Shown here in pieces: positions 9,693-52,488 of a DNA stretch of 64,000 nt. The notes beneath the pieces were generated by a model. It searched no databases, had not been told where the DNA came from, and saw only the letters and a program-made list of their open reading frames with translations. Position 1 is the stretch's first letter, and each line of letters begins with the position of its first letter. The DNA is taken from the NCBI GenBank assembly GCA_018883125.1, contig VEQR01000002.1:20023-84022 (forward strand), in the 5' to 3' direction. Source of the DNA: Candidatus Kapaibacterium sp. GTDB taxonomy: Bacteria > Bacteroidota > Ignavibacteria > Kapaibacteriales > Kapaibacteriaceae. Made by a program: the position numbers and the translations under genes.

Positions 9693-11132
9693 TTACAGCC
9701 CGATCCACGACCGATAGATCGACAGCAGCTGCGTCGTAAAGAATCCGAGTGCAATGCTCGCTGCAGCTGTAACGACAACGGTGATGCCGGCCAGTCCGGT
9801 GCGTGTTGGCTCGTGCGAGCCCTGCGGTTCGGAGAAGTACATCTTAACGATGAGGCCAAGGTAGAAGTAGGCGCTCACCACCGACGCCAGAACGGCCACC
9901 AGCGTCAGCCACAGGTACCCGGCATCGATGGCCGAGACAAAGAGTAGGTACTTACCAAAGAAACCGGCAAGGGGCGGAATTCCAGCAAGTGCGAACATGA
10001 ATACCGCCATTGCGAATGCCAGCACAGGCTCGCGCTTGGCAAGCCCGGCGTAGTCACTGATCTGCAGATGCTGTTCGTTGCCGCGTTCGAGGATGCCCAC
10101 AACAACAAACGCTCCAAGCTGCATGAAGACATACGACGTAACGTAAAACACAATGGCAAAGTATCCATCGGCGCTATTGGCTACTATTCCCATGAGAAGG
10201 TAACCTGCGTGCGCTACCGATGAATACGCCAGCATACGCTTGACGTTGGTCTGAGAGATGGCCGTGATGTTGCCGATGAGCATCGTAATGGCCGAGACCA
10301 CGGCAAGCATATTCTGAAGCTTTGGCGTCAGGGCCGCACCGTGCGGCATCAGCGCGCTGAACACGGTGATGAACGCCGCGAACGCGGCCGACTTGCCGGC
10401 CGTGCTCATGAAGGCCGTTACCACCGAAGGAGCCCCTTCATAAACATCCGGTGCCCACTGGTGGAACGGGAATGCCGCAACCTTGAAGCCCAGTGCCACT
10501 GCAAGTAGCACGGCACCAATGGCCAACAGCATCGGGAAGTTCACCGCACCGTCGTGGATGTTTTTGGCGATTACGTCGAACTGCAGTGAGCCTGTGGCAC
10601 CATAGATCAATGCCATACCGTACACGAGAAAGCCCGATGCAAAGGCACCAAGCAGGAAGTACTTGAGTCCGGCTTCAATACTGCGAATGTTCGTGCGAAG
10701 AAAACCCGCCATCACATAAAACGAGATCGACATCAGTTCAATACCAACGAACAGCACCAAAAGGTTGTTCGCGTGCGCCATGAACATCATACCCGACACT
10801 GATGAGACAAGGAGCGTATAGAACTCATCAAGCTCGGCATTCTCGCGCTGCAAATAGGGTCGCGCAGCCATCATGGCCATGATACCGGCACCGCAGAACA
10901 GCACATCGAAGTAGTTGGCAAAGCCCCCTACCGTGATCATGCCATTGAACGCCAGTGCCTTGTGTCCCGCGGTGATAACTGCCAGCGCCGCCGTACCGGC
11001 AAGCGTTGCCATGTAGTAGCCGAAGATCAGACGCGTGTTATTGCGAACAAACGCCTGAATGGCAATGCCAACAGCCCCAAGGGCAAGCCAGATGACGATC
11101 AGCGGAAGTGAGCCAAAAATGTCGATGTTCAT
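9693..11132 (-). CDS. nuoN: NADH-quinone oxidoreductase subunit N
   Basis: 479-aa polytopic membrane protein. Its conserved blocks (LGAFASGFLVYGMALIYGATGSL, FHQWAPDVYEGAP, AYSSVAHAGY) are typical of NuoN/ND2. Confidence 0.9.
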   Translation of the reverse strand: MNIDIFGSLPLIVIWLALGAVGIAIQAFVRNNTRLIFGYYMATLAGTAALAVITAGHKALAFNGMITVGGFANYFDVLFCGAGIMAMMAARPYLQRENAELDEFYTLLVSSVSGMMFMAHANNLLVLFVGIELMSISFYVMAGFLRTNIRSIEAGLKYFLLGAFASGFLVYGMALIYGATGSLQFDVIAKNIHDGAVNFPMLLAIGAVLLAVALGFKVAAFPFHQWAPDVYEGAPSVVTAFMSTAGKSAAFAAFITVFSALMPHGAALTPKLQNMLAVVSAITMLIGNITAISQTNVKRMLAYSSVAHAGYLLMGIVANSADGYFAIVFYVTSYVFMQLGAFVVVGILERGNEQHLQISDYAGLAKREPVLAFAMAVFMFALAGIPPLAGFFGKYLLFVSAIDAGYLWLTLVAVLASVVSAYFYLGLIVKMYFSEPQGSHEPTRTGLAGITVVVTAAASIALGFFTTQLLSIYRSWIGL

Positions 11133-11174
11133 GCGAAGGTCCTTGATGCAGCGATCAGGGGGTCGAATTCGTAA

Positions 11175-12734
11175 TTAATGATGGGCTTCGGCGTGCGGCG
11201 CGTGGTTCACTTTGATGGTCAGTGACTCCGGTGCCGGTTTCTGGACCCATTTGACAACGGCTGTTACGCTCTGCTCGGAGAACTTCATCAGGGGTCCTGG
11301 CTGAACGCCGATCCAGATGGCCAGAAGAGCAAGCGGAACAAGCTGCCAGTATTCACTGCGGTTGAGGTCGCGCAGGTAGTGATTCTCGGCATTGTCGTTC
11401 GTGCCGAACATCACACGTTGGAACATCCACAGCAAATACACCGCGGCAAAGATCACGCCACTGGCGCTCACAATGGCATACGTCCAGTTGTTGAGAACGG
11501 GGCTCTTAAAGGCACCGAGGAGCGTCAGGAATTCACCAATAAACCCGTTCAGCCCGGGTAGGCCAACAGATGCGAACATGGCGATGGCAAACAGCACGGC
11601 AAACTTTGGCATCACCTTGGTGATCCCACCATAATCGGCGATCTCGCGTGTGTGACGACGCTCGTACAGAACGCCCACACAAAGGAACAACATCGGTGTT
11701 GAAATACCGTGGTTGATCATTTGCAGCACAGCCCCCTGCACACCTTCGGTGGTGACGGAGAAAATCCCAAGCACCACAAAGCCAAGGTGGCTCACCGATG
11801 AATAGGCAACAAGTTTTTTGATGTCGGTCTGCACCATGGCAACGAGTGCGCCATAGACAATGCCGATTACCGCAAACACACTGATCAGGTGAGCGAAGTG
11901 CACAGACGCCTGCGGGAAGAGTCCAAGGTTGAACCGAATAAGTCCATAGGTACCAAGCTTGAGCAAAACGCCGGCAAGAATCACCGAACCGGCCGTCGGG
12001 GCCTGAACGTGGGCATCAGGGAGCCATGTGTGCAATGGGAAGAGCGGCACCTTGATGAGGAAGGAGATCGCAAAAGCCCAGAAGAGCAGCTGCTGCTTAT
12101 CAAAAGCGATCTGCGACCCAATGGCCTGAAGCTTGGTGAGGTCTGCAGTGAAGCCGTGTCCGGCCCACTGCGATTCGAGGCCAAGCCATACGATGGCAAG
12201 GAGCATCAGCAGCGAACCGACCAACGTGTAGAGAAAGAACTTGATCGCGGCGTAGATGCGGTCCTTCCCACCCCAGATACCGATGATGAAATACATCGGA
12301 ATGAGGATAAGCTCCCAAAACACATAGAACAGGAATGTGTCCCAGGCCATGAATACACCAGTCATGCCGAACTGCAGAAGCAGCATCAGCACATAGTATT
12401 CTTTGATGCTTTTGGAAATCGGTTCGTAGGAGGCCAGCAGGGCAATCGGCATGATGAGCGTGGTCAGGAGCACCAACGGCAGAGCAATACCATCAACGCC
12501 AAGGCGGAAGCCAGCATCGAGCGAGGGGATCCATGGCTGATCGATCACAAACTGCAGCGCTGAATTCGACGGATCGAACTCCGGAATCATAAAGAGCGAC
12601 AGCAGAAAGGTTAGACACGAGAACACCAGCGCAGTGCGCTTGATGGCCGTAGCCTGATCGCGATGAATGAACAGAATGGCGATCGCTCCAAGGAGCGGAC
12701 CGAACAATGTTGCGAGCAGAGCTGACACGCCCAT
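11175..12734 (-). CDS. nuoM: NADH-quinone oxidoreductase subunit M
   Basis: 519 aa. The blocks HTWLPDAHVQAPTAGSVILAGVLLKLGTYG and LVAYSSVSHLGFV are typical of NuoM/ND4. Confidence 0.9.
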   Translation of the reverse strand: MGVSALLATLFGPLLGAIAILFIHRDQATAIKRTALVFSCLTFLLSLFMIPEFDPSNSALQFVIDQPWIPSLDAGFRLGVDGIALPLVLLTTLIMPIALLASYEPISKSIKEYYVLMLLLQFGMTGVFMAWDTFLFYVFWELILIPMYFIIGIWGGKDRIYAAIKFFLYTLVGSLLMLLAIVWLGLESQWAGHGFTADLTKLQAIGSQIAFDKQQLLFWAFAISFLIKVPLFPLHTWLPDAHVQAPTAGSVILAGVLLKLGTYGLIRFNLGLFPQASVHFAHLISVFAVIGIVYGALVAMVQTDIKKLVAYSSVSHLGFVVLGIFSVTTEGVQGAVLQMINHGISTPMLFLCVGVLYERRHTREIADYGGITKVMPKFAVLFAIAMFASVGLPGLNGFIGEFLTLLGAFKSPVLNNWTYAIVSASGVIFAAVYLLWMFQRVMFGTNDNAENHYLRDLNRSEYWQLVPLALLAIWIGVQPGPLMKFSEQSVTAVVKWVQKPAPESLTIKVNHAPHAEAHH

Positions 12735-12847
12735 ACGCTGTAGGTTCCGTCTGTAGTGTCACTTACCGTGTTGAAGCCGCAATATAGCAAACGGGCCGCG
12801 TCGGCGGGACGATAATGCGTCCGCCGTCGTGCGTAGGTTTGCATCCC

Positions 12848-13450
12848 ATGAGCACATCCTCACGATCGACATTGATGTTCGTCGGACTCGGAAACCCGGG
12901 TGCAGAGTATGCACAAACGCGTCATAACATCGGTTTTATGGTGGTCGATGCCTTTGCGTCGTTCATCGAAGAGCCGTGGACCTCTCCTTCGTCGCTCTTC
13001 GAGGAGGCCCGTGCGCGCTATGCCGGCATCGAATTGGTGTTGATAAAGCCCCTTACCTACATGAACCTCTCGGGTAAGGCCGTTGCCAAACGCAGCCGAG
13101 AACTGGGTATCTCCCCCACCCGCGTTGTTGTCATCACCGATGAATACAACTTCCCTGTGGGAAAGCTCCACCTCAAGCAAGGGGGCACTGCCGGTGGGCA
13201 CAACGGCGTAACGTCGGTGATCGAAGAATTGGAGACGGCCAATTTCTGGCGTCTTCGCTGCGGGATCGATCGCAAGTTCGGCCCGGGCGAGCTGGTGGAC
13301 TATGTGCTGGCACCATTCGATGCAAGCCAGAGTGACGAGCTTGGACGCATGATCGAGCGCGGATGCGAGGCGATCCGACAGATCGCCAAGGTGGGTCCCG
13401 CCCTGGCCATGCAGAAGGTCAATACGCCTGGTCCCTCCTCAGGGGGCTGA
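12848..13450 (+). CDS. pth: Peptidyl-tRNA hydrolase
   Basis: The motifs LMFVGLGNPGAEYAQTRHNIGF and GTAGGHNG are present. The ATG at 12848 gives a protein of normal length (~200 aa). Confidence 0.9.
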   Translation: MSTSSRSTLMFVGLGNPGAEYAQTRHNIGFMVVDAFASFIEEPWTSPSSLFEEARARYAGIELVLIKPLTYMNLSGKAVAKRSRELGISPTRVVVITDEYNFPVGKLHLKQGGTAGGHNGVTSVIEELETANFWRLRCGIDRKFGPGELVDYVLAPFDASQSDELGRMIERGCEAIRQIAKVGPALAMQKVNTPGPSSGG

Positions 13451-14077
13451 TCATTCCGCCTCGGGACGCAGATATCCGTCGTTGCGGATCACCCGCTGGA
13501 TGGCATCGGCCTTGGCAACGGCCGGCATTACGTCTTTGTAGTGTTCTCTGAGCAGAACCAGCCGCGTGTTTTCGTCCTGGACCTCAAGGAGCATCTGCCT
13601 CTGCATCGGAGTCAATCCGGCCTTGGGGGCCATGTCGAATGACGGCGTAGCAGTAAGGTCGTCAATCGATAGCGTCTGCGCCGCAAGACCATAGACCATT
13701 GTTACAATGCGATTATAGTTGGCCAGCACCTCCTCAAGAAGGGCCTGGTCACAGCCGGAGGAATCGTCGTAATACTCTTCGACCTCGCCAACGTTGTAGG
13801 GGGCATCGGTTGAGATCAGGTCAATCAGTTTGTACCGACGCAGACCCTCGACCACGACGTCCATGCGTCCATCCGGGTGACGTTCCAGAACGTCCACCAC
13901 AATGGCCGAACAGCCCACAGGATGAAGCCGTCCGTCATCCACAAGGTTGATCCCAAACTCCGAACCCCGCTCAAGACACTCGTTGATGAGTGTCTTGTAG
14001 CGAGGTTCAAAGATGTGAAGGGGCAATCGAACCTCGGGAAAAAGAACGAGGTTCAACGGGAACAGTCCAAGGGTCAT
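13451..14077 (-). CDS. LON peptidase N-terminal (substrate-binding) domain protein
   Basis: LFPLNLVLFPEVRLPLHIFEPRYKTLI is the typical opening of a LON N-terminal domain. There is no ATPase or protease part. The ATG at 14077 overlaps the SOD stop as ATGA. Confidence 0.8.
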   Translation of the reverse strand: MTLGLFPLNLVLFPEVRLPLHIFEPRYKTLINECLERGSEFGINLVDDGRLHPVGCSAIVVDVLERHPDGRMDVVVEGLRRYKLIDLISTDAPYNVGEVEEYYDDSSGCDQALLEEVLANYNRIVTMVYGLAAQTLSIDDLTATPSFDMAPKAGLTPMQRQMLLEVQDENTRLVLLREHYKDVMPAVAKADAIQRVIRNDGYLRPEAE

Positions 14078-14700
14078 CGACGAAGCTTGAGGTAGCGGTC
14101 GTTGATGCGACCCCAATGCAGATTGTTCAGGAAAGCGTCGATGTATCCAGCGCGGCCGGGACCACTCTTGTGATAGTAGGCGTGCTCAAATACGTCGCAG
14201 GCGATCAGCGGCATGCCGCCCCAGATTGCGCCGTAGTGATGCTCGTCCACGAGCACGTTGAGGAGTCGGCCAGAGTACAGCGAATCGATACACAGCACGC
14301 CCCATCCCGATAGCTTGGCGGCTAAAGCCGATGCCTTAAAGTCGGCCTTCCACGCATCAAGTGAGCCGTACTCCTTTTCGATGGCGGCAACAACGTCCGG
14401 TCCCTTGCTTGTATCACCATCGCCGCCCATGACTTCCCAATAGACATCATGAAGGACGGTACCGGCATGGTTCCAGGTGAATCGGCGCTTCAGCTCGCCA
14501 ACGTCGCTCCAGTTGCCGTTTGCAGCGGCACGATCAGCACTCTCAAGACCGGCTTCGATCTTGTTGAGAAACGTCACGTATCCCTTGTGGTGTGTGTTGT
14601 AGTGCCAGTCCGTCGTCTCCGGGGAGATCACGTCCTTGAGCAATTCCCTTGCTTCCTCGTCGCTATATGGACGTGGATTGAATTTCCATTCGTAGGCCAT
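14074..14700 (-). CDS. Fe/Mn-family superoxide dismutase
   Basis: 208 aa. Metal-ligand regions WHYNTHHKGYV and CDVFEHAYY are present. The length and pattern match the Fe/Mn SOD family. Confidence 0.85.
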   Translation of the reverse strand: MAYEWKFNPRPYSDEEARELLKDVISPETTDWHYNTHHKGYVTFLNKIEAGLESADRAAANGNWSDVGELKRRFTWNHAGTVLHDVYWEVMGGDGDTSKGPDVVAAIEKEYGSLDAWKADFKASALAAKLSGWGVLCIDSLYSGRLLNVLVDEHHYGAIWGGMPLIACDVFEHAYYHKSGPGRAGYIDAFLNNLHWGRINDRYLKLRR

Positions 14701-14750
14701 GGGTACCTCAAATGCAGATGATGTGAAGGATGTTTTGTTGGTCGGGGGTA

Positions 14751-15149
14751 TCAGACACCGAAGCTGCTACCGCAGCCGCACGTCTTTGTAGCGTTCGGGT
14801 TGTTGAAGGTAAAGCCCTTGCCCATCAACCCATCGCTGAAGTCCAGCGTCATGCCCATCAGATAGAACATGCTCTTGGCATCAATAAAGATGCGTACGCC
14901 GTCGGCACTAAGCACAAGGTCCGCTTCCTTTGTTGCTGCGTCAAATCCGAGTGTATAGGACATGCCGGAGCAGCCCCCTCCCTTGACGCCGAGTCGCAGA
15001 CCGTAGTCATCGGCGATGCCGTTCTGCTCTTTGATCTTCTTGACCTCGGTAAGGGCCTTCATGGTGACGATGATATTATCGTTGTCATCAGTTCCCGTCA
15101 CCCCGGTAGGAATCGAAACAACGTCGGCGCCGATCATGGCAACGCTCAT
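14751..15149 (-). CDS. sufA: Iron-sulfur cluster insertion/assembly protein (HesB/IscA/SufA family)
   Basis: The C-terminal CGCGSSF and the internal GGGCSGMSY are A-type carrier motifs. The ATG at 15149 (MSVAMIG...) overlaps the Rrf2 stop as ATGA. The longer ORF-track start is unlikely. Confidence 0.85.
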   Translation of the reverse strand: MSVAMIGADVVSIPTGVTGTDDNDNIIVTMKALTEVKKIKEQNGIADDYGLRLGVKGGGCSGMSYTLGFDAATKEADLVLSADGVRIFIDAKSMFYLMGMTLDFSDGLMGKGFTFNNPNATKTCGCGSSFGV

Positions 15150-15580
15150 AGTACCTCCAATTGAACGAGTTCTCGAGGAGCAGCCAGTTCGGCAATGCTC
15201 ATCGATCGAAATGTTTCCTGTATACGCTCCTGCAATCTGCCGAGCGGTTCTTTGATCGTACACGTGTGTTCAGCACTGCACGACGAGTGATCTGTGCTTT
15301 GACAGTCCACCAAGGCTGATGAGCCCCCTTCCATTACCAAGATGACCTCGGCAACGGTAATGGAGTCGGATGGACGAGCAAGAGTGTAGCCTCCGGTGCT
15401 TCCGGCATACGAACGGATAAGTCCGTGACGTGCCAGCTGCTGAAGCACCTTGGCAACAAGCGCCTGCGAGATGCCATAATGCACGGCTACGTCTTTTGCC
15501 GAGACAATGTTGCCTGGCTTTGATGCGATGTCCTGCATGGCAAGCAGTGCGTACTCTATGCGCTTCGACAAACGAACCAT
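15146..15580 (-). CDS. Rrf2-family transcriptional regulator (IscR/SufR-like)
   Basis: 144 aa. The N-terminal winged-helix pattern MVRLSKRIEYALLAMQDIA...ISQALVAKVLQQLARHGLI is present. A Cys cluster (CQSTDHSSCSAEHTC) is compatible with Fe-S binding. Confidence 0.85.
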   Translation of the reverse strand: MVRLSKRIEYALLAMQDIASKPGNIVSAKDVAVHYGISQALVAKVLQQLARHGLIRSYAGSTGGYTLARPSDSITVAEVILVMEGGSSALVDCQSTDHSSCSAEHTCTIKEPLGRLQERIQETFRSMSIAELAAPRELVQLEVL

Positions 15581-15583
15581 GGC

Positions 15584-15892
15584 TTACTGATCGTAGTCCA
15601 CCAGGCAGCCGTCCGACGTTGGATGGGCCTGACATGTGAGAATGTAGCCATCGGAGATCTCATCATCCGAAAGTGCCTCGCGCTCGTCCATGATGGCCGT
15701 GCCCGACACCAGGCGAGCGCGGCATGTGCAGCATGCGCCGATCTGGCAGGCATACGGAGGATCGAGATTCGCACGCTGCGCGGCGGCGAGAATTGTCTCG
15801 TCTGGCTGAACGGTGAACTCGGTCTCCTGACCATACAGGCGAACCTTGACGCTGCGGGTGACAAGTTCGGATGTCTGTTGCGAAGAATCCAT
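15584..15892 (-). CDS. Plant-type 2Fe-2S ferredoxin
   Basis: 102 aa. Cluster motif CQIGACCTCRARLVSG plus a distal Cys (ILTCQAHP). Confidence 0.8.
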   Translation of the reverse strand: MDSSQQTSELVTRSVKVRLYGQETEFTVQPDETILAAAQRANLDPPYACQIGACCTCRARLVSGTAIMDEREALSDDEISDGYILTCQAHPTSDGCLVDYDQ

Positions 15893-15895
15893 GCG

Positions 15896-16684
15896 TTACT
15901 CGAAGGTTGAAGTGGAGGCTGTTGACGAAAAAGATTCGAAATGAATGTGCTCTGCAGATGCGCCCATCAGCTGAAGATTCTCACTGACAGCGTCAATCAT
16001 TCCACCCGGACCGCACAGGAGATACTCGGTGGAGGAATCTGCGATAATGGCAGGTGCAATGGTGTGCGACAGGGTCTCCACGGTAATGCGTCCATGGTGA
16101 ACAGCATCGGCAGTGAGTACCTCCGCACCAACAAGACTTTCCAGTACGTGGGCGATGACAAGCCGTTCGGCCACCTCTGATCGTAGCCGCTCGAGCTCAC
16201 GAGCAAACATTACTTCATCGGCAGAAGCGTTGGCATACACAAGCAGAACGCGACTGAGTGGTTCAACAACAAGAACTGATTTGGCAATTGCCCACAATGG
16301 AGTTACGCCGCTGCCACCGGCAACCAGCACGATCGTGCGATTATGGGATGGATCAAGGTGGATGCCGAAGGTCCCCTTCGGCGGACAAACCATTACCGTA
16401 TTTCCCGCGTAGAGCATAGCCTGCACACGCGCAGCTACTGACGACGCGTCGCTGCGCTTAACCGCGATGGTAAGGGGCTCACCAGCCTCTAGACTGGAGC
16501 AGAGGGAGTATGCATGCTCTTCCGTAGAGCCGTTACCATCCACCTGTACCTTGATGTACTGTCCAGCACGATACGCAAACGTCTCCCGAAGCCACTCCGG
16601 TATATGGAACGCAGCAGCACGTGCGCGTGGCGTGGTGTCCCACGCACGCTCAACAACCAGAGGAAAGAATTCGTCCGAGGTCAT
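15896..16684 (-). CDS. FNR-family FAD/NAD(P)-binding oxidoreductase (PaaE-like reductase without the fused ferredoxin)
   Basis: The motifs RAGQYIKV, GGSGVTP and CGPGGM are characteristic of the ferredoxin-reductase fold. The ATG at 16684 overlaps the sufT stop by 1 nt (TGATG). Confidence 0.75.
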   Translation of the reverse strand: MTSDEFFPLVVERAWDTTPRARAAAFHIPEWLRETFAYRAGQYIKVQVDGNGSTEEHAYSLCSSLEAGEPLTIAVKRSDASSVAARVQAMLYAGNTVMVCPPKGTFGIHLDPSHNRTIVLVAGGSGVTPLWAIAKSVLVVEPLSRVLLVYANASADEVMFARELERLRSEVAERLVIAHVLESLVGAEVLTADAVHHGRITVETLSHTIAPAIIADSSTEYLLCGPGGMIDAVSENLQLMGASAEHIHFESFSSTASTSTFE

Positions 16685-18726: not shown

Positions 18727-20063
18727 CAGGACAGCAGAGTATCCGTTGAAAGTTTGCGGGCAATACGACGCGTGAGCAGTTCGCGAAGTCCGTCAAGCGA
18801 GATCTTCTCCACAACCTCTGTGATGAAGGCATAGGTCAGCAGAGCCTTGGCCGTGTCCTTGTCAATTCCACGCGAGCGGAAGTAGAAGATCGCTTCTTCG
18901 TCCACCTGACCCATGGTAGCCCCGTGGGAACACTTCACATCATCAGCCCAGATCTCCAGCTGTGGCTTCGCCTGCACTTGTGCCTTGGAGCTCAGAAGCA
19001 GCGTATGGTTTGACTGGTAGGCCGTGGTCTTTTGTGCTTGCGGGCGAACGTAAATCTTTCCGTTGAACACGCCCGTTGAACTGCCGTCGTAGATACCCTT
19101 GTAGAGCTCTTCGCTGTGGCAGTGCGGCACCATGTGGTCCACCACCGTATGATTGTCTGTGTATTCGTGATCGGCAAGAAGGCTTACGCCGAAGAGAAAT
19201 CCCTGACTTGATGGTTCACAAAGGCGAAGCGCAAGATCATTCCGCACAAAGCGTCCGCCGATACTGAGAGCATGCGACGTGAAGGTCGCATCGCGATGCA
19301 CATCAGCCGACACCGACGAGATCGATCGCGCAGCGTCCGCATCATCGGCGATCTTGAAGTACCGAATGTGGGCCATCGCCGATACGACAAATTCCACCAC
19401 CGTGGCATCGAGGACTGTTGCCTCACCGAATACGTGGTGCGACTGGACAATATCTACCTCTGCCCCCTGCTCAGCGATCACCAGCAGTCGTGGTGTGATG
19501 AGTGTGGGTGATGTGGAGTCTGATGTCTCGATCGACACATGGATCGGCGGTTCAACACGGACGTCCTTTCCGATGCGAAGAACAACTCCGCTCTCAAGCA
19601 GCGCTGTGTTCAGGGCAACGAACGGATGCGTGTTCATGGGGGCGCCGCTACCAAGGGCGCCGGCAATTGCTGCATCGTTCTCTACCAACTCCGGTGTGAG
19701 TTCGATGATCTCCACGCCGCTTGGCAGGGTGGAATCATCCACAATCACGCAACCATCGACGATACGAACGCTCACGTGCTGACCGAGTGCGGAGGCGATC
19801 TCCTTGGCCGATGCCGGCATCGTGTTTTGTGCGCTAACGGAGCCCCAATGCGTTGGGCGATAGGTAAAGTCCTGACCAATGAATGGAAAAACGTTGGTGT
19901 ACTTCCACTCTTCATGACGTGTTGTGGGAATGCCCATGCGGACGAATTCTCGAAGGCCTTCTCGACGCAGGTAACCAAGCCGTCCATCAGCAGCTTCTAC
20001 GGCCGCCTCAGCATGCACCGCAACGCGACTCTGGGCAAGCTCCACAAGTGAATGCTGCGACAT
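18726..20063 (-). CDS. sufD: Fe-S cluster assembly protein SufD
   Basis: 445 aa. It has a SufB/D-family C-terminal beta-helix pattern and sits between sufC and sufS. It shares 1-nt overlaps with both neighbours. Confidence 0.9.
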   Translation of the reverse strand: MSQHSLVELAQSRVAVHAEAAVEAADGRLGYLRREGLREFVRMGIPTTRHEEWKYTNVFPFIGQDFTYRPTHWGSVSAQNTMPASAKEIASALGQHVSVRIVDGCVIVDDSTLPSGVEIIELTPELVENDAAIAGALGSGAPMNTHPFVALNTALLESGVVLRIGKDVRVEPPIHVSIETSDSTSPTLITPRLLVIAEQGAEVDIVQSHHVFGEATVLDATVVEFVVSAMAHIRYFKIADDADAARSISSVSADVHRDATFTSHALSIGGRFVRNDLALRLCEPSSQGFLFGVSLLADHEYTDNHTVVDHMVPHCHSEELYKGIYDGSSTGVFNGKIYVRPQAQKTTAYQSNHTLLLSSKAQVQAKPQLEIWADDVKCSHGATMGQVDEEAIFYFRSRGIDKDTAKALLTYAFITEVVEKISLDGLRELLTRRIARKLSTDTLLS

Positions 20064-47800: not shown

Positions 47801-48278
47801 GGTTGCGGACATTGTTGGCCGGTGGGACGGAACCGACACTTTGGCGGTGATCCCAATGCGCTCCCTACTCTCCCTCTCTCCTTCCACTGATCTCGTATTT
47901 GACCGAACTCCCGGCTTTCTCTGGACGGGACAGCAAAGCGACGTGCAATACGATGACGGCTCGCTTCTGATTGATGAGGTCTGCGCCGGACGACGCCTTC
48001 GTGCAGTCGGATTTGATGAAGCTGCGCGCCCCGTTATTCAACCATCACCGCTGCAAGATGTGATGCAGATACACCTACCAAGAACCGTCACGGGTGCAAC
48101 AACTATCATCGTCAGCGATGCCGTTGGCAGAGCTGTTCTTCAACACACAATTAGCGTGATTCCAGAGAACCAAAGCACACCGCTATTGATTGATGTCAGC
48201 TCCCTTGCGGCGGGCATCTACTTCGTCCACATAGAAACCACCAAAGGTTCCGCTGATCTACCTGTTGTGGTGAGATAA
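44829..48278 (+). CDS. Giant secreted protein (1149 aa) with a Gly-rich predicted beta-helical domain, Ig-like domains, a cohesin-like module and a T9SS C-terminal domain
   Basis: Signal peptide MTIALRRITVSMLLLCTICAAQSLAQ. The Gly-rich region runs GFRGG...GGGGGRGHNSGGGGGGNGGVGGRGG...GGGGGGGCF. The cohesin-like segment reads KTGQVVDVPVLMVG...FSVRYAW. The sorting tail reads AAGIYFVHIETTKGSADLPVVVR. Confidence 0.75.
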   Translation: MTIALRRITVSMLLLCTICAAQSLAQTSIGGIVNDYTRVLLAETVNCRSRLLVDSVASFSVGDLVLVMQMQGCTGATGYDVSAVGRCEFATIDTIVGTEFRLEFPLENTYSNCGMIQLVRVPVYRSASVTTPLTGRPWDGRVGGIVVIDVRGTLALRADVRADTLGFRGGAIWQGGGTCSTMVDDDVINSANSAAKGETFVRPLPTMVAGGRALFSGGGGGRGHNSGGGGGGNGGVGGRGGSQWEGCGSFFDNGGRPGDRYPPVLNGKPLPRFGSGGGAGQMNNGNGTGGGRGGGIVIIRCDTLIGNQRVVSANGGSPLRVGLNDGAGGGGAGGTVLIVSPVVTGPVAVLALGGAGGDLNTGGLHGPGGGGGGGCFITSEQLSPNNLTYTLAGGTNGRNQAFTDVRNSVYLAEGGQPGGVGFRAPVPENRTPPPPIEVTAVASYTVCYGDSIVLDCSVIGRADTILWTTTRGKLIGRTKRSGLRGIVSDTFVVKAIGPTGCWALDTVVVTVRDPWNVRLDTLDLGVLRCSAPIDTFITLRNRTTRTAPISRWMVSDSAFIQLLTSTDSVSARDSFQVRLLVSPGDRQGRQVSTITAVVSPCDSAIIAVVSWTRQDRQIDMRPDTVIMPMIETCTTTSEEVTIAVRFTGADVVVEDLLTDSVASASIALPRPLASGDTMMVRVVWSPSRVAATGRLGFVIRDSACLDTFWMTVTGKVKAPFLIAPTTVQADTLTLCEDSVLTVRVPLIADTTTAWIVDSIDVVGPGSASIVRGDSIRGLDTIIVKARPGVSGPYQIALRMRLLPCDTVVTILINGVARDASIRSSPSLTFTERIIGRRQVLVASYVNTGTTPCALRVVQTPRAPFRILRITPVLPMEIGIGDSVTIEVEYRQSFGEFTDSVVLERVAPCPTLLTTLLNGEGKAITRLRIPDVTAKTGQVVDVPVLMVGRPDIDAALLDTFSVRYAWKTSEASVEPGSDARSSWTLLPRGDSTVADIVGRWDGTDTLAVIPMRSLLSLSPSTDLVFDRTPGFLWTGQQSDVQYDDGSLLIDEVCAGRRLRAVGFDEAARPVIQPSPLQDVMQIHLPRTVTGATTIIVSDAVGRAVLQHTISVIPENQSTPLLIDVSSLAAGIYFVHIETTKGSADLPVVVR

Positions 48279-48286
48279 GTCAGGCG

Positions 48287-48328
48287 TTGGGTTTTGGGTT
48301 TTGGGTTTTAGGTTATAGGTTATGGGTT
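48287..48328. repeat. Six tandem copies of a 7-bp unit (TTGGGTT x3, TTAGGTT, ATAGGTT, ATGGGTT)
   Basis: Read directly from the sequence: ttgggtt ttgggtt ttgggtt ttaggtt ataggtt atgggtt. The array lies in the convergent intergenic gap between the 1149-aa cargo gene stop (48278) and the pirin stop (48387). Confidence 0.9.
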
Positions 48329-48386
48329 GAATCTCGAAGCGACCCAATGGGAATACCCAAGTCTGGAATGTATCTCACTGCGAGTG

Positions 48387-49247
48387 CTAGTAATCCAGTT
48401 GCCCCATCGCCCCCTGACGGAAATCAAGGAAGGCCTGACGGATCTCATCTTCAGTATTCATCACAAACGGACCGTAGGCAATCATCGGTTCTTCAAGGGG
48501 CTCCCCTGCCAGCAGAAGGATACTTGTTGGTTCGATTGCCTCGAGAGAGATACTCTGGCCGTTATCGGCAAAGACCACAAGCTTGTGGCGGTCAACGACA
48601 TGCTCGTTATTCACGCGAAGCGAACCGCCGAGGACGTACAGTAAGAGCGTACGCATGGGCGGTACGTCGATCTCACCGGTAGCACCAGCATCGATGGTGC
48701 CCATGGCTGCCATGATGGGTGACTGGGTTGTTGCCGGACCTCGCTTGCCTGCGAACTCACCGGCAACCAGCTGCAGCTGGCCAGCGCCATCGAGGATGCT
48801 GACGGTTGGAATACTCTCGCGATGGATCTCCTGATAAGCCGGCGACATCATCTTCTTTTCTGCCGGCAGGTTTATCCAGAGCTGAATGATCTCCAGCTCG
48901 CCCCCGTCACGCAGAATCTGCTCAGAGGGCCCTTCGCTGTGAATGATGCCGCTTCCGCTGGTAATCCACTGCACCTCGCCGGAGCTGATGGATCCTTCGT
49001 TGCCGAGGGAGTCCCGGTGCAGCAGACTCCCTCGGTAGACGAATGAAACGGGTTCGAATCCACGATGTGGATGAGGATCGACGCGCCCATGAAACTCACC
49101 CGGCACCACAGGCTGCGGTCCAGCATGGTGCAGCAGAATGAACGGATCTGCATCGCGTAATGCCGCCACCGGAAGGGGCTGCTTTACGTTCAAAGGTCCG
49201 ACATTCGTCAGTAGTGAGTCAGTGATGATTGACACGGGGCGAAGCAT
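48387..49247 (-). CDS. Pirin-family protein (bicupin)
   Basis: 286 aa. The motif HPHRGFEPVSFVYRG and the two-cupin layout are present. Confidence 0.88.
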   Translation of the reverse strand: MLRPVSIITDSLLTNVGPLNVKQPLPVAALRDADPFILLHHAGPQPVVPGEFHGRVDPHPHRGFEPVSFVYRGSLLHRDSLGNEGSISSGEVQWITSGSGIIHSEGPSEQILRDGGELEIIQLWINLPAEKKMMSPAYQEIHRESIPTVSILDGAGQLQLVAGEFAGKRGPATTQSPIMAAMGTIDAGATGEIDVPPMRTLLLYVLGGSLRVNNEHVVDRHKLVVFADNGQSISLEAIEPTSILLLAGEPLEEPMIAYGPFVMNTEDEIRQAFLDFRQGAMGQLDY

Positions 49248-49250
49248 GGC

Positions 49251-49775
49251 TTAGCTCTTCTGAAGTTGGATGTTGAGGATAAGCTTGACGGCGTCGGACA
49301 CAACAATACCGCCGGCTTCGGTGACCGCATCCCACGCAAGACCGAACTCTTTGCGGTTGATCGTACCGGAGATCTCAAATCCAGCCTTGGTGTTACCATA
49401 GAAATCGACCATCTGCCCGCCATACTCTGCAGACAACGCCACGCTCTTAGTGACGTCACGAATTGTCAGATCGCCTGTCAGGTCATACCTTCCATCGCCC
49501 TTTGGTGAGAATGCCGTAGAAACGAATCTCATCTTGGGATACGTTTCCGCAGCGAAGAAGTCTTCGCTCTTGAGGTGTCCATCACGCATATCATTCTTTG
49601 TCGAAATGCTGTTGACATCTGCCTCGAATACGATCGATGCGTCCGAAAAGTCCTCTTTCTCCGACTCCACCGTCACCGAATAACTCGTGAATTCTCCCGT
49701 GACCGTGTTGATCATGAGGTGCTTTACCTTGAACTGCACATCTGAGTGCAGCGAATCAACATTCCATGTTGCCAT
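49251..49775 (-). CDS. YceI-family (polyisoprenoid-binding) protein
   Basis: 174 aa. WNVDSLHSDVQFKVKHLMINTVTGEF is a typical YceI N-terminus. GGAG lies 6 nt upstream of the ATG. The stop is 3 nt before the pirin start. Confidence 0.85.
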   Translation of the reverse strand: MATWNVDSLHSDVQFKVKHLMINTVTGEFTSYSVTVESEKEDFSDASIVFEADVNSISTKNDMRDGHLKSEDFFAAETYPKMRFVSTAFSPKGDGRYDLTGDLTIRDVTKSVALSAEYGGQMVDFYGNTKAGFEISGTINRKEFGLAWDAVTEAGGIVVSDAVKLILNIQLQKS

Positions 49776-49814
49776 GTTGTTCTCCTGTGATGGTTGTGTG
49801 ATTAAAAATAGTTG

Positions 49815-49828
49815 CGTGTTGCAACACG
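49815..49828. promoter_or_regulatory. Perfect 14-bp palindrome CGTGTTGCAACACG upstream of yceI (candidate operator)
   Basis: It lies 40-53 nt upstream of the yceI ATG. On the minus strand it is followed by a TATTTTTA element resembling TAnnTTTG. Confidence 0.4.
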
Positions 49829-49847
49829 AATATATGGACGAAGTTTT

Positions 49848-49991
49848 GAATTACTGAGTTACTGAATTACTGAAGTACTGAAGTACGGAATTACTGAATT
49901 ACTGAAGTACTGAAGTACCGAATTACTGAATTACTGAATTACCGAATTACTGAAGTACTGAAGTACCGAAGTACCGAAGTACCGAAGTACT
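49848..49991. repeat. Left arm: 18 tandem 8-bp units GAA(T/G)TAC(T/C/G)
   Basis: Counted unit by unit: gaattact, gagttact, gaattact, gaagtact, gaagtacg, ... gaagtacc x3, gaagtact. There are stop codons in all frames, so it is non-coding. Confidence 0.95.
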
Positions 49992-50008
49992 TAGTTGCCC
50001 AACGACCT

Positions 50009-50176
50009 CCGTCATTCTGTAATTCAGTAACTCCGTCATTCTGTAATTCAGTAACTCCGTCATTTTGTAATTCCGTCATTCCGTCATTCCGTAATTCCGT
50101 CATTCCGTCATTCCGTAATTCCGTAACTCCGTACTTCAGTACTTCAGTACTTCAGTACTTCCGTCCCTCCGTCCCT
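50009..50176. repeat. Right arm: 21 tandem 8-bp units C(C/A/T)GT(A/C)(A/C)(T/C)T, inverted relative to the left arm
   Basis: The units are ccgtcatt, ctgtaatt, cagtaact, ... cagtactt x3, ccgtccct x2. Tandem cagtactt is the exact reverse complement of tandem gaagtact. The arm overlaps the last 41 nt of the deoC ORF. Confidence 0.95.
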
Positions 50177-50828
50177 CACTCACGATCCCAACGCCGCTTG
50201 ATGTTCCGAGGCGTGTTGCTCCGGCATTGATCATAGCAACAGCGGTTGCGGCATCTCGGATGCCCCCTGAGGCTTTGACTTGGACGTTTGGGCCGACATG
50301 CAGACGAAGCAACCGGACATCATCAAGTGTTGCACCGCCGGTTGAGAAGCCGGTAGAGGTTTTGATGAAGTCTGCTCCAGCCTCGGTTACGGCCTCGCAC
50401 ATCAGCAGCTTTTCTTCGTTGGTGAGCAGGCAGGTTTCGATGATGACCTTAACGATCGCACCGTGATCGTGCACCGCCGACGTGACATCGCGGATATCCG
50501 CGAACAGCCGATCTCGTTGACCGCTTTTGAGTGCGGTAATAGAGGCAACCATGTCGATCTCGCTGGCCCCATTCTTGATAGATTCAACGGCTTCGTAAAC
50601 CTTCGTAGTTGTTGCGCTGGCCCCAAGTGGAAAGCCGATAACGGTACAGATTGGCAGCGGATGAGCGCCTCTTATAAGTGCTGCGTCGGCAACATGCCAT
50701 GGTAGAATGCAAACACTGGCAAAGCGGTGCGTTATCGCTTCGTGAACAAGCGTACGAACATTGTCCAGCGTACTGTCGGGCTTGAGAACAGTATGGTCGA
50801 TCGTTGATGCGAGAGAGGAGACATCCAT
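50136..50828 (-). CDS. deoC: Deoxyribose-phosphate aldolase
   Basis: The ATG at 50828 gives MDVSSLASTIDHTVLKPDST. The motif FIKTSTGF contains the Schiff-base Lys. The final ~14 codons (..EGRRDGSTEVLKY) are encoded by the 8-bp repeat array. Confidence 0.88.
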   Translation of the reverse strand: MDVSSLASTIDHTVLKPDSTLDNVRTLVHEAITHRFASVCILPWHVADAALIRGAHPLPICTVIGFPLGASATTTKVYEAVESIKNGASEIDMVASITALKSGQRDRLFADIRDVTSAVHDHGAIVKVIIETCLLTNEEKLLMCEAVTEAGADFIKTSTGFSTGGATLDDVRLLRLHVGPNVQVKASGGIRDAATAVAMINAGATRLGTSSGVGIVSEGRRDGSTEVLKY

Positions 50829-50841
50829 GGCAAGGGGCGTT

Positions 50842-52488
50842 TTATTGTCCGTCGATCTCCCGTCCAATGATCTGGGGTGGACGGAACTGGTGGAGACCGA
50901 AGGCAGAAAAGAGTTGATTGACAGCAAAGATCAGACCGGACATACGACCAGTCAGTGGGTCATAGGCAACATCAAAGCGAAAGGAAGCATTCGTTCCGGA
51001 CGCTTTGAGATTGTGGATGCGGATACCGGCACCGACAGCATTGCGGTATCTGGAAGAAAGGAAACGGACATTCTGGTCGAATACCGTTCCGACATCATGG
51101 AATAGCACACCGCTTAGACCAAAGATCCAGAGCTGCCAACGTGGGAACCAGCGCAGTTCGGTATTCATCACAAATCGACTGTCACCAGCGAGACCATTTG
51201 CATCCAGACCTCTCATTCCCGATTCCGGATCTAAAACAAGTTGATGAAACCCATTCCAGTTCCAGACCGTTTGCGAGCGCAGCCGTGAGGTCAGCACAAG
51301 TGCTGGGTCGATACGCCAATGCGCAATGCCGAGCAATTCAAGGGACGTATTGCGCGCATTTGAACCAACAAAACCAGTGCCTGCAGCGATGCGGCCAAAT
51401 GCATACATCGTGGGGGTGACAAGGTTCGACTGTTCTGCTTCGCCGGCGATGTACCACATCGGTTGCGAGCCGCTACCCATCGAAAACACTCGGCCAAGTG
51501 TTGCAGAACCCCACGCCCCTTGCTGAAGATCTTCCGTCTCGTAGCCATTGAGAAATTGGGTCCGAGAAAAACGCTGAGAGATTGATGAAAACCCAACGAG
51601 TATGTGAGCTGTGTTGTCGAATGCCTGACGTGACGTGGGATCCACCCGCTGCACATCACTCGCACGAACTGCGCCGGTCACAAAAAGCCGATCGCGCTCG
51701 CCGTCAGCTTGCGAGATCCACGCATCGATGGTTCGCTCACGAAACGGCAACAGTCGCGGCGAGGCGCCTTCAGCGCCGTAGGCGAAGTCACTGCCGAAGG
51801 CATTCGTAAAGCGGAGGTTAAAGGCCCATGGCGTGAACAGACGCCAGTATGGCTGACCGATCACAACATCTTGGTCTGTGCGAAACCGGTTTGACGTAAC
51901 GGCAAGGTTAGCGCTGATTCCGCTTCGGAGAAAGCGTCGAAGGCTCAGCTCGAATGTGCCCTGAAGCCCAATGTCGTTCTCGGTGCGGCGGATGCCCAGC
52001 ACCTTGGCTCGTGATGCCGTACCGAGCAGGTTGTATTCTTCCAATTGGATTCCATAGGTAGCGATTCCACCACCTGTTGAGAAGACGACAGCAGGATCGA
52101 GTGACCAACGGTCCTGCGCCTCGATGACAACGTCCACGCTGTCGCCATCGACGTGATGCTGCACACTGACCTTACTGAAGACCCGTGTCAAACGAAGCAC
52201 ACGCTCTGTTTCGAGAAGATCCACCGTATCGAGATCATCACCGATATCGAAGAATATCTCGTCATCAAGCACATAGGGCTTTGTCAACACATGCAGACTG
52301 TTCAGCCACGATGCGCCAAAGAACCAGTCTCTATCGCCGGTGCCAAACACATCTTTCTGATCGATGCGCACAGATCGGATGGTTGGTGTCTCAGCCGACT
52401 TCTGCGCGTAAACAGGCAGAGCATGTAGCATCGTCAGCACGCCAAGGATCCACGGTAATGCTCTGACAAGGGGCTTTCGTGGCCTCAC
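50842..52488 (-). CDS. Omp85/BamA-TamA-family outer-membrane protein (POTRA + surface-antigen barrel)
   Basis: 548 aa. Signal peptide ..ALPWILGVLTMLHALPVYAQ. It has a POTRA-like N-terminal domain and a long barrel region ending ..FGLHQF-containing tail. The GTG start overlaps the ptsI stop (GTGA). Confidence 0.7.
   Translation of the reverse strand: MRPRKPLVRALPWILGVLTMLHALPVYAQKSAETPTIRSVRIDQKDVFGTGDRDWFFGASWLNSLHVLTKPYVLDDEIFFDIGDDLDTVDLLETERVLRLTRVFSKVSVQHHVDGDSVDVVIEAQDRWSLDPAVVFSTGGGIATYGIQLEEYNLLGTASRAKVLGIRRTENDIGLQGTFELSLRRFLRSGISANLAVTSNRFRTDQDVVIGQPYWRLFTPWAFNLRFTNAFGSDFAYGAEGASPRLLPFRERTIDAWISQADGERDRLFVTGAVRASDVQRVDPTSRQAFDNTAHILVGFSSISQRFSRTQFLNGYETEDLQQGAWGSATLGRVFSMGSGSQPMWYIAGEAEQSNLVTPTMYAFGRIAAGTGFVGSNARNTSLELLGIAHWRIDPALVLTSRLRSQTVWNWNGFHQLVLDPESGMRGLDANGLAGDSRFVMNTELRWFPRWQLWIFGLSGVLFHDVGTVFDQNVRFLSSRYRNAVGAGIRIHNLKASGTNASFRFDVAYDPLTGRMSGLIFAVNQLFSAFGLHQFRPPQIIGREIDGQ

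Follow-up and report, generated by a model that had tools for sequence, protein, structure and literature searches.

The stretch of DNA analyzed here (the window) is 64,000 nucleotides of a Candidatus Kapaibacterium genome, corresponding to positions 20,023 to 84,022 of contig VEQR01000002.1 in assembly GCA_018883125.1. Its subject is the junction between deoC, encoding a deoxyribose-phosphate aldolase, and yceI, encoding a polyisoprenoid-binding protein of the YceI family. The flanking genes are all found on the minus strand in the order Omp85-like gene, deoC, array, yceI, and pirin, and a large gene encoding a protein of 1149 amino acids sorted by the type IX secretion system (T9SS) converges on the pirin gene. 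At the junction lie two arrays of contiguous 8-nt units in opposite orientations. With a probability of roughly 0.6, the two arrays are a hypervariable pair of variable number tandem repeats (VNTRs), built by replication slippage, including slippage of several units at a time, at the deoC/yceI-pirin junction of this Kapabacteria lineage.

Structure of the Arrays

When read unit by unit, the yceI-proximal arm consists of 18 contiguous 8-mers arranged head-to-tail: seven copies of GAATTACT, four each of GAAGTACT and GAAGTACC, and one each of GAGTTACT, GAAGTACG, and GAATTACC. A unique spacer of 17 bp, TAGTTGCCCAACGACCT, which carries a 4-bp mini-stem (GTTG..CAAC), separates it from the deoC-proximal arm. 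This second arm is an unbroken run of 21 inverse-type 8-mers, among them seven copies of CCGTCATT and three of CAGTACTT. The layout is exactly the one proposed in the first-pass annotation of this DNA. On the sense (minus) strand the units of the deoC-proximal arm read AGGGACGG (two copies), AAGTACTG (three copies), AAGTACGG, AGTTACGG, AATTACGG, AATGACGG, and further ones, while those of the yceI-proximal arm read GTACTTCG, GTACTTCA, GTAATTCA, and similar. Unit types such as GTACTTCA and GTAATTCA are common to both arms. The general form of the octamer is GA(A/G)(T/G)TACN, an ACTGA or ACGGA core recurs among the units, and ACGGA motifs are numerous on the sense strand. The many units that had been said to contain GTAC amount to 13 of the 39.

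Tandem Repeats Finder (TRF) gave the arrays scores of 178, 153, and 188. The two 24-bp higher-order blocks noticed earlier are present, and periods of 24 bp and ~32 bp were found both by TRF and by the unit reading; these periodicities fit slippage of more than one unit at a time. In the best register the arms are 75% complementary over 154 nt, the best 50 nt reach 84%, and many other registers are nearly equal. The G+C content of the array is 36-44%, vs. 56% for the window as a whole. The two-unit motif GAAKTACNGAAKTAC has 36 matches in the 64-kb window when up to two mismatches are allowed, all of them within the array region, while shuffled sequences gave 0.47. As in a VNTR, the short units (18 + 21 8-mers) are contiguous and have no spacers, and the view that the array is not a CRISPR therefore stands. 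The array is not a classical terminator either, since a terminator scan and reading of the sequence found no T-run after either arm. No direct duplication flanking the array was found.

It had also been claimed that the array fills the intergenic region between deoC and yceI. This holds for most of the region, but the array begins with 41 nt of coding sequence (50136-50176) for the C-terminal 13 residues and the stop codon of DeoC, and the 72 bp preceding yceI are not repetitive. DeoC is 100% identical to P0001, a deposited protein of 230 amino acids, encoded on a contig of 86.7 kb and named 'MAG: deoxyribose-phosphate aldolase [Candidatus Kapabacteria bacterium]' (MAG, metagenome-assembled genome), and the two share the C-terminal tail SEGRRDGSTEVLKY, which is followed by a stop codon that is the TGA of a TACTGA unit. 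Three consecutive units bearing TACTGA in the deoC-proximal arm place Tyr-stop in every reading frame. Apart from the DeoC tail, the array was correctly judged to be non-coding, and an open reading frame (ORF) of 54 codons on the minus strand (49939-50103) is regarded as arising from the 24-nt periodicity. The mechanically called deoC ORF begins at a TTG (50927) and thereby runs into the Omp85-like gene upstream (50842-52488), overlapping its 3′ end. The deposited start, the ATG at 50828, is a better fit to the homologues. Exact-sequence look-ups of the window YceI and of P0001 matched no contig, and there is thus no second assembly of the window strain.

The coordinates of the features are collected in Table 1. 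The pirin gene is probably part of one operon with yceI. The non-repetitive block upstream of yceI contains TCCATATATTCG, the perfect 14-bp palindrome CGTGTTGCAACACG (49815-49828), and an AGGAG ribosome-binding site. The palindrome lies within the conserved sequence TCCATATATTCGTGTTGCAACACGCAA, ~45 nt upstream of yceI, and the block is likely to be the promoter and operator of yceI-pirin.

Table 1. Features at the deoC/yceI-pirin junction of the window.
Feature	Coordinates	Strand	Basis and remarks
deoC (deoxyribose-phosphate aldolase)	50136..50828	-	Pfam DeoC, E 2.6e-16; start as in deposited protein
deoC-proximal arm, 21 octamers	50009..50176	-	Unit reading, TRF; contig ends of L001 and L002
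Spacer, 17 bp, apical loop of predicted hairpin	49992..50008	.	Unit reading and folding
yceI-proximal arm, 18 inverse-orientation octamers	49848..49991	-	Unit reading, TRF; matching units in relatives
yceI upstream block, non-repeat, 72 bp	49776..49847	-	Near-identical in L003, L204-L211, and L257-L259
yceI (polyisoprenoid-binding YceI family)	49251..49775	-	Pfam YceI, E 1e-45; downstream of array
Pirin gene	48387..49247	-	Pfam Pirin and Pirin_C matches; 3 nt downstream of yceI

The deoC-yceI Junction in Related Genomes

The relatives used for comparison are independent assemblies. The two that are closest with respect to DeoC (L001 and L002; 85% and 81% identity) are represented by contigs that stop ~30 nt past the deoC stop codon, inside octamers such as GAGGTACT, GAGTTACG, and similar ones, and the DeoC tails of P0002 (ANDGKTEVLSY-stop) and P0004 (MNGGVTEVRSY-stop) are also encoded by repeat units. 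The contig encoding P0003 (L261) stops one base past the deoC stop codon and is uninformative. The other side of the junction is found in two contigs encoding YceI proteins that are 93% identical to that of the window. L258 begins within inverse octamers, of which it holds at least five, while L259 contains six, GTCATTCC being present among them, downstream of an (AGACGAG)n heptamer array at the contig start (1-30). One junction thus hosts different repeat units in different strains.

A sister lineage, whose DeoC is 76-78% identical to that of the window, shares the gene order deoC-yceI-pirin-T9SS gene (L003, L204-L211). Its intergenic region opens with a heptamer array. This is followed by a terminator-like hairpin and its T-run, by a unique stretch of ~80 bp, by inverse octamers, and by the conserved promoter block. 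The heptamer array (TTACTGA/TGATTAC) starts within the last deoC codons, ACT GAT TAC TGA, and the inverse octamers beside the yceI promoter are GTAACTCC, GTAATTCT, and similar. Both the length and the sequence of the unit hence shift between close lineages, from the heptamer TTACTGA to the octamers GA(A/G)(T/G)TACN. The window units GGAGTTAC and GGAATTAC from the deoC arm are exact reverse complements of the sister yceI-arm units GTAACTCC and GTAATTCC.

Eight contigs from different samples encode an identical DeoC, P0009. Two of these end inside the array, while the six complete junctions contain 2, 2, 3, 3, 4, and 7 copies of TGATTAC. Five contigs extend to yceI, with a distance of 179, 186, 186, 193, and 214 nt from the deoC stop codon to the ATG of yceI; the second two-unit contig, L207, ends before yceI. 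Heptamer count aside, the intergenic region is conserved. Whole-unit differences in copy number next to an identical DeoC are direct evidence of length polymorphism in steps of one unit, and the sister lineage thus displays, at the corresponding site, the whole-unit steps between constant flanks that mark a VNTR. The earlier suggestion that the locus is prone to slippage has in this way gained direct support. In neighbouring lineages there are five (L257) and 11 (L003) heptamers, and the inverse arm has 3-4 units in L003 and L204-L211 and seven in L257.

The outgroups (L004 and L212-L214) have no repeats after deoC. Here the final codons are TAC TGA, and beyond them lie GC-rich hairpins and other genes. 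L004, the Bacteroidota bin NASQAN2011_332_B_bin.40, was the one close relative found when a genome contig collection was scanned with DeoC, the remainder being distant Firmicutes and Chloroflexi. In L004 ~5.9 kb (10651-16563) with several genes lie between deoC and yceI-pirin, while the window has both adjacent (49776-50135). As deoC and yceI are apart in L004 and adjacent in the lineages that carry the repeats, the repeats mark a rearrangement junction, and the repeat-free outgroups and the distant yceI of L004 indicate that the repeats arose after the two genes became neighbours. L004 (16500-16530) also keeps the block upstream of yceI, including the palindrome with one base changed, but has no octamers. 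The repeats are accordingly not part of the yceI promoter, and that candidate role was rejected.

Origin of the Arrays

The deoC-proximal array would have grown from the end of the gene itself, since ACT GAT TAC TGA holds two copies of ACTGA at a distance of 7 nt. L204, where the array is in the two-copy state (GCTGATTACTGATTACGCG), likewise has ACTGA twice at this distance at the end of deoC. The yceI-proximal array would be made of the same type of unit, copied in the inverse orientation. The reverse-complementary units found in different lineages and the unit types common to both arms suggest arm-to-arm copying by template switching, or common descent, followed by independent expansion. In the window lineage, with its 8-nt unit, both arms would then have expanded, to 21 and 18 units, and the expansion would have replaced both the small terminator-like hairpin and the unique ~80 bp that lie between the arms in the sister lineage. 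The unit would have little or no sequence-specific function, and its copy number would be close to neutral. Support for slippage as a generic process comes from the unrelated arrays that are found beside stop codons in other intergenic regions of the clade (in the window, L258, and L004). As a speculation, repeated target-site duplications caused by transposons might have been the source of 8-bp units.

An inverted pair of this size could also be an assembly artefact, that is, a chimeric or collapsed palindrome, or a mobile element with terminal inverted repeats built from repeat units. The short-read assemblies of the relatives do break at the repeats, which makes the exact copy number in the MAG uncertain, and some similar palindromic matches in metagenomes resemble transposon ends in eukaryote-like contigs. 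However, the arms are too far from perfect complementarity (75%) and too different in unit composition for a palindromic artefact, their syntenic flanks are correct, and independent assemblies contain each arm separately and correctly oriented (deoC side, L001 and L002; yceI side, L258 and L259). A chimeric palindrome is thus unlikely. For a mobile element, it is problematic that the sister lineage has both arms in a small version without any target-site duplication, and that the deoC arm begins inside coding sequence. A miniature inverted-repeat transposable element or another transposon was also considered, and was rejected because no target-site duplication is present and because the relatives display graded arm sizes instead of an empty site. 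Both versions of this explanation are therefore regarded as extremely unlikely.

The overlap with deoC opens for the array being a contingency locus that acts on the enzyme. Slippage in the first units would then alter the flexible C-terminal tail of DeoC, while the three TACTGA units would keep Tyr-stop in all frames. The tails of P0001 (SEGRRDGSTEVLKY), P0002, and P0004 are all array-encoded and all end in Y, and the C-terminal tyrosine of the Escherichia coli deoxyribose-phosphate aldolase (DERA) takes part in catalysis (reviewed in PMC8403123). In simulations the protein still ended in KY when units 1-2 were deleted or duplicated and when units 3-5 were duplicated. Loss of one of the three TACTG units, on the other hand, resulted in a long read-through tail in the simulation, and a C-terminal Y is found in only 26 of 120 DeoC homologues. 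The idea of a frame-proof Tyr-stop thus holds only partly. The simulation further showed that only the first five of the 39 units, which are the coding ones, are able to alter the tail. The array of the sister lineage begins only at the stop codon, and its copy number leaves the protein untouched; nor would this mechanism explain the inverse arm. It must be considered very unlikely that the array serves such a purpose.

Folding of the Arrays and the 3′ End of deoC

The hairpin potential proposed from the inverted layout is real. The sense RNA was calculated to fold with -149.7 kcal/mol (z -14.2; shuffle mean -84.9), the antisense RNA with -122.0 kcal/mol (z -13.0; shuffle mean -65.8), and the single-stranded DNA with -80.9 kcal/mol (z -13.3; shuffle mean -33.4). 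The two RNA strands differ by 28 kcal/mol, of which the shuffle means assign ~19 to base composition. Selection at the RNA level, as deduced from this asymmetry, was consequently rejected. The corresponding intergenic regions of the sister lineage do not fold better than shuffled sequences (z +0.13 and -0.52), showing that the big hairpin is specific to the window lineage. A conserved hairpin, and with it a conserved role for the RNA structure, was for this reason abandoned. No match with E <= 1 was found in Rfam 15 across 48200-51000.

The 3′ side of deoC differs between the lineages. The sister lineage has its terminator-like hairpin with a T-run immediately after the array, and the outgroups have GC-rich hairpins after the deoC stop codon. 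In the window only the giant hairpin is found. No Rho-independent terminator was predicted at either arm, the sole matches on the minus strand being the conserved palindrome at 49815-49828. The giant hairpin is thereby the only candidate for a 3′ structure of the deoC mRNA, and may, as far as the folding model goes, act as stabilizer, terminator, or insulator. The deoC transcript would end in, or read through, an imperfect hairpin of ~150 bp, probably as an incidental effect of the expansion. The hairpin could still stand in for the lost 3′ hairpin as a stabilizer or terminator, and would then separate deoC from the yceI-pirin promoter.

A stronger version of this would be a functional RNA element, where the transcribed arrays fold and are cut by RNase III or block exonucleases, so that the number of repeats tunes the expression of deoC and/or yceI-pirin. 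The very strong folding (-149.7 kcal/mol, z -14.2), the higher stability of the sense strand compared to the antisense strand, and the position of the array exactly between a stop codon and the promoter that follows, in a stretch without any other terminator, are all in favour of such an element. There is also a precedent in Haemophilus influenzae hmw1A, where a hairpin built by simple sequence repeats is processed by RNase III (PMC12721329). The hairpin is, however, not conserved, as the 7-nt and 8-nt arms of the sister lineage are unable to pair in register and their regions fold like shuffled sequences. The strand difference is mostly compositional (19 of 28 kcal/mol), and the Rfam search gave nothing. 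A functional RNA element is therefore seen as possible but rather doubtful.

The comparison with hmw1A also has its limits. In both cases repeats form an arm of a long and stable RNA hairpin, (ATCTTTC)n in hmw1A (PMC12721329), and the copy number varies by slippage, but in the window the hairpin is a prediction. The other arm in hmw1A is a unique G-rich region, the hairpin lies in the 5′-untranslated region, and its function has been demonstrated by experiment (PMC12721329). In the window both arms are repeats, they follow a stop codon, and the structure is known in silico only. A role for the numerous ACGGA motifs as a CsrA-like sponge was set aside, the heptamer relatives being without GGA.

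Relation to Known Repeat Families

According to the first-pass annotation no element of this form had been described. Intergenic tandem arrays of 7-8-nt units are, however, known from several bacteria (PMC4679880; PMC4692102; PMC2700814). They constitute a described but functionally unsolved class, and the window locus fits this class. Within the 64 kb of the window it does not display the defining features, such as unit sequence and multicopy status, of any of the specific families, and what sets it apart is its size and its inverted layout.

The TAACTGA repeats are found in Beggiatoaceae, Cyanobacteria, and five Bacteroidetes, and form arrays of up to 43 copies (MacGregor, 2015; PMC4679880). 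Their function is itself unknown (PMC4679880). Like the repeats at the deoC junction they are intergenic and consist of head-to-tail units, 7 nt long, without spacers and with stop codons within the unit. Long arrays in Bacteroidetes, 7-nt insertions or deletions between close strains, and contigs that end in repeats are further similarities, and the TAACTGA regions also hold other heptamer arrays, as is the case here (PMC4679880). The unit in the window is nevertheless an octamer, GA(A/G)(T/G)TACN, and that of the relatives is TTACTGA; neither is TAACTGA. The arrays form an inverted pair and are found at one locus in 64 kb. TAACTGA sets are many per genome and lie mostly in the forward orientation just upstream of start codons. 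At this junction the forward arm starts from a stop codon; the other arm, which is nearer to the yceI start, runs in the reverse orientation at a distance of 72 nt.

Geobacter metallireducens contains three classes of repeats (classes 1-3) where intergenic tandem arrays of 7-8 nt are paired on opposite strands at variable distances, and where the function is unknown (PMC2700814). Two such opposite-strand arrays in one intergenic region are exactly what is found between deoC and yceI. The Geobacter sites have 3-5 units with the consensus sequences GTTGCTYN, TCTCCGTS, and MTYCTGA, and constitute families of 8-24 pairs (PMC2700814). The window locus, in contrast, has 18 + 21 units at one locus, its units drift between lineages, and its consensus is unrelated. 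It does not have the make-up of a multicopy family with 3-5 units per site, and no second copy was found in the window.

The short tandemly repeated repetitive (STRR) heptamers of cyanobacteria, reportedly described by Mazel et al. in 1990, are of the same intergenic class. So are the GGGNATC repeats of Xanthomonas and Nostoc, non-coding tandem 7-mers of 2-26 units that form G-quadruplexes and prefer gaps between ORFs in the same direction, at most 50 bp from stop codons (PMC4692102). Unlike these genome-wide families with a fixed unit, the window unit is AT-rich and 8 nt long, and has been demonstrated at one locus.

Occurrence of the Unit Elsewhere

As had been proposed, a search was made for other arrays of this kind. 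When metagenomes were scanned for four tandem copies of GARKTACN many matches were obtained, and among the matches listed the contigs had a GC content of 24-72%, the arrays were mostly intergenic, and many were found at contig ends. Counted in viral_contigs, the real motif (four tandem units) occurred at seven loci, and three scrambles that kept its composition and degeneracy occurred at 11, 16, and 8. A widely conserved motif was therefore rejected, the scrambled octamers matching as often or more often than the real one. Among the matches listed, arrays that had not been selected by the search were mostly of period 7 (17 arrays) or period 8 with many different units, and about 8 of 86 octamer arrays had an inverse partner within 400 bp.

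These results are relevant to the proposal that the arrays bind a protein. The units would in that case be sites for a sequence-specific DNA- or RNA-binding protein with a genome-wide regulon, of the TAACTGA type or of the 'paired global-regulator sites' type of Geobacter. The unit of the relatives, TTACTGA, is one mismatch from TAACTGA, in G. metallireducens the opposite-strand pairs of tandem octamer or heptamer sites number 24, 21, and 8 (PMC2700814), and the ACTGA/ACGGA core recurs among the units. Furthermore, two contigs from one metagenome (L098 and L127) have the same (GTACTTCC)n array at two loci. However, the unit switches between 7 and 8 nt, and its sequence drifts among lineages whose DeoC proteins are 76-85% identical. 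In L004 the conserved yceI promoter has no units, the scrambled-octamer control displayed no enrichment, the unit is found nowhere else within the 64-kb window, and none of these repeat families has a known binding protein. The protein-binding array suggested in the first-pass annotation thus finds little favour, and is quite unlikely.

A bolder idea combines the protein and the RNA. The repeats could be the Kapabacteria branch of a family of TAACTGA-like repeats, of the TNACTGA(A) type, that crosses phyla and is read by a nucleic-acid-binding protein, while the inverted pair would be a double-stranded RNA switch, for instance an RNase III substrate, tuned by copy number and coupling or insulating deoC and the stress-related yceI-pirin genes. 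This is an unlikely scenario.

Several other arrays were noted along the way. In L098 (4790-4996) and L127 (5450-5597), both contigs of ~500 kb with a GC content of 0.57-0.59, the (GTACTTCC)n array is directly preceded by an identical hairpin element, GACCGGTAGGGTCGCAGCATGCTGCGACCCCACGA, and the two together form a dispersed composite repeat. In L098 this composite appears to follow a putative tRNA-like sequence. A metagenome contig with 43% GC (L103, 960-1150) has a small inverted pair built from units of the window type, where GGAGGGAC and three copies of GGAAGTAC are followed by an AT-rich loop of 34 nt and then by GTCCCTCC, GTAACTCC, and GTACCTCC units. The pair is preceded by a (GCGACAA)n heptamer array, and an ORF for a zinc-finger protein similar to InsA of IS1 is found downstream. 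Five contigs (L145, L152, L161, L095, and L146) have palindromic TACGGAAGTAC...GTACTTCCGTA units in addition to (GT)n, (ACAG)n, and (CTAG)n microsatellites and coding repeats of 48 bp. These contigs look eukaryotic, and their units may be terminal repeats of transposons.

The other end of the pirin gene also has an array. In the window, six copies of TTGGGTT, the last units being degenerate, are found at 48287-48328, 9 nt past the stop codon of the gene for the T9SS-sorted protein. They sit in the convergent gap before the pirin stop codon, with the G3 tracts on the plus strand. The relatives have unrelated arrays at this end of pirin, a 14-mer (CTGCGGTGGGACAC) in L258, and seven copies of an 18-mer and six of a 14-mer that continue to the contig end in L004 (17950-18148).

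Implications

A VNTR pair built by slippage accounts for the structure of the arrays, their conserved position, and the unit-step polymorphism in the relatives, but some observations weigh against it. The copy number and the order of the units in the window are those of a single assembly, and the polymorphism is the one seen in the relatives. Repeats persist at this junction in several lineages, and the TTACTGA unit of the relatives is one base from TAACTGA, which is reported to be favoured in some genomes (PMC4679880); both could point to selection rather than neutrality. The scrambled octamers were counted in viral_contigs, a different collection from the metagenomes where the motif matched broadly. 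Finally, the part given to the hairpin as stabilizer or terminator is an interpretation, and no U-tract follows it.

The locus alone reveals no new mechanism, and is a fairly ordinary slippage-prone repeat and not a new kind of genetic element. It does provide a clean bacterial VNTR of 7-8-nt units in an uncultured lineage of the Fibrobacteres-Chlorobi-Bacteroidetes (FCB) group, conserved in position and traceable to the last codons of a gene. The repeats are a known cause of contig breaks in the short-read assemblies of these genomes. As the copy number varies between environmental populations, the junction is a potential marker for strain typing. As one more example, it also bears on the question why certain bacterial lineages gather heptamer and octamer arrays beside their stop codons.

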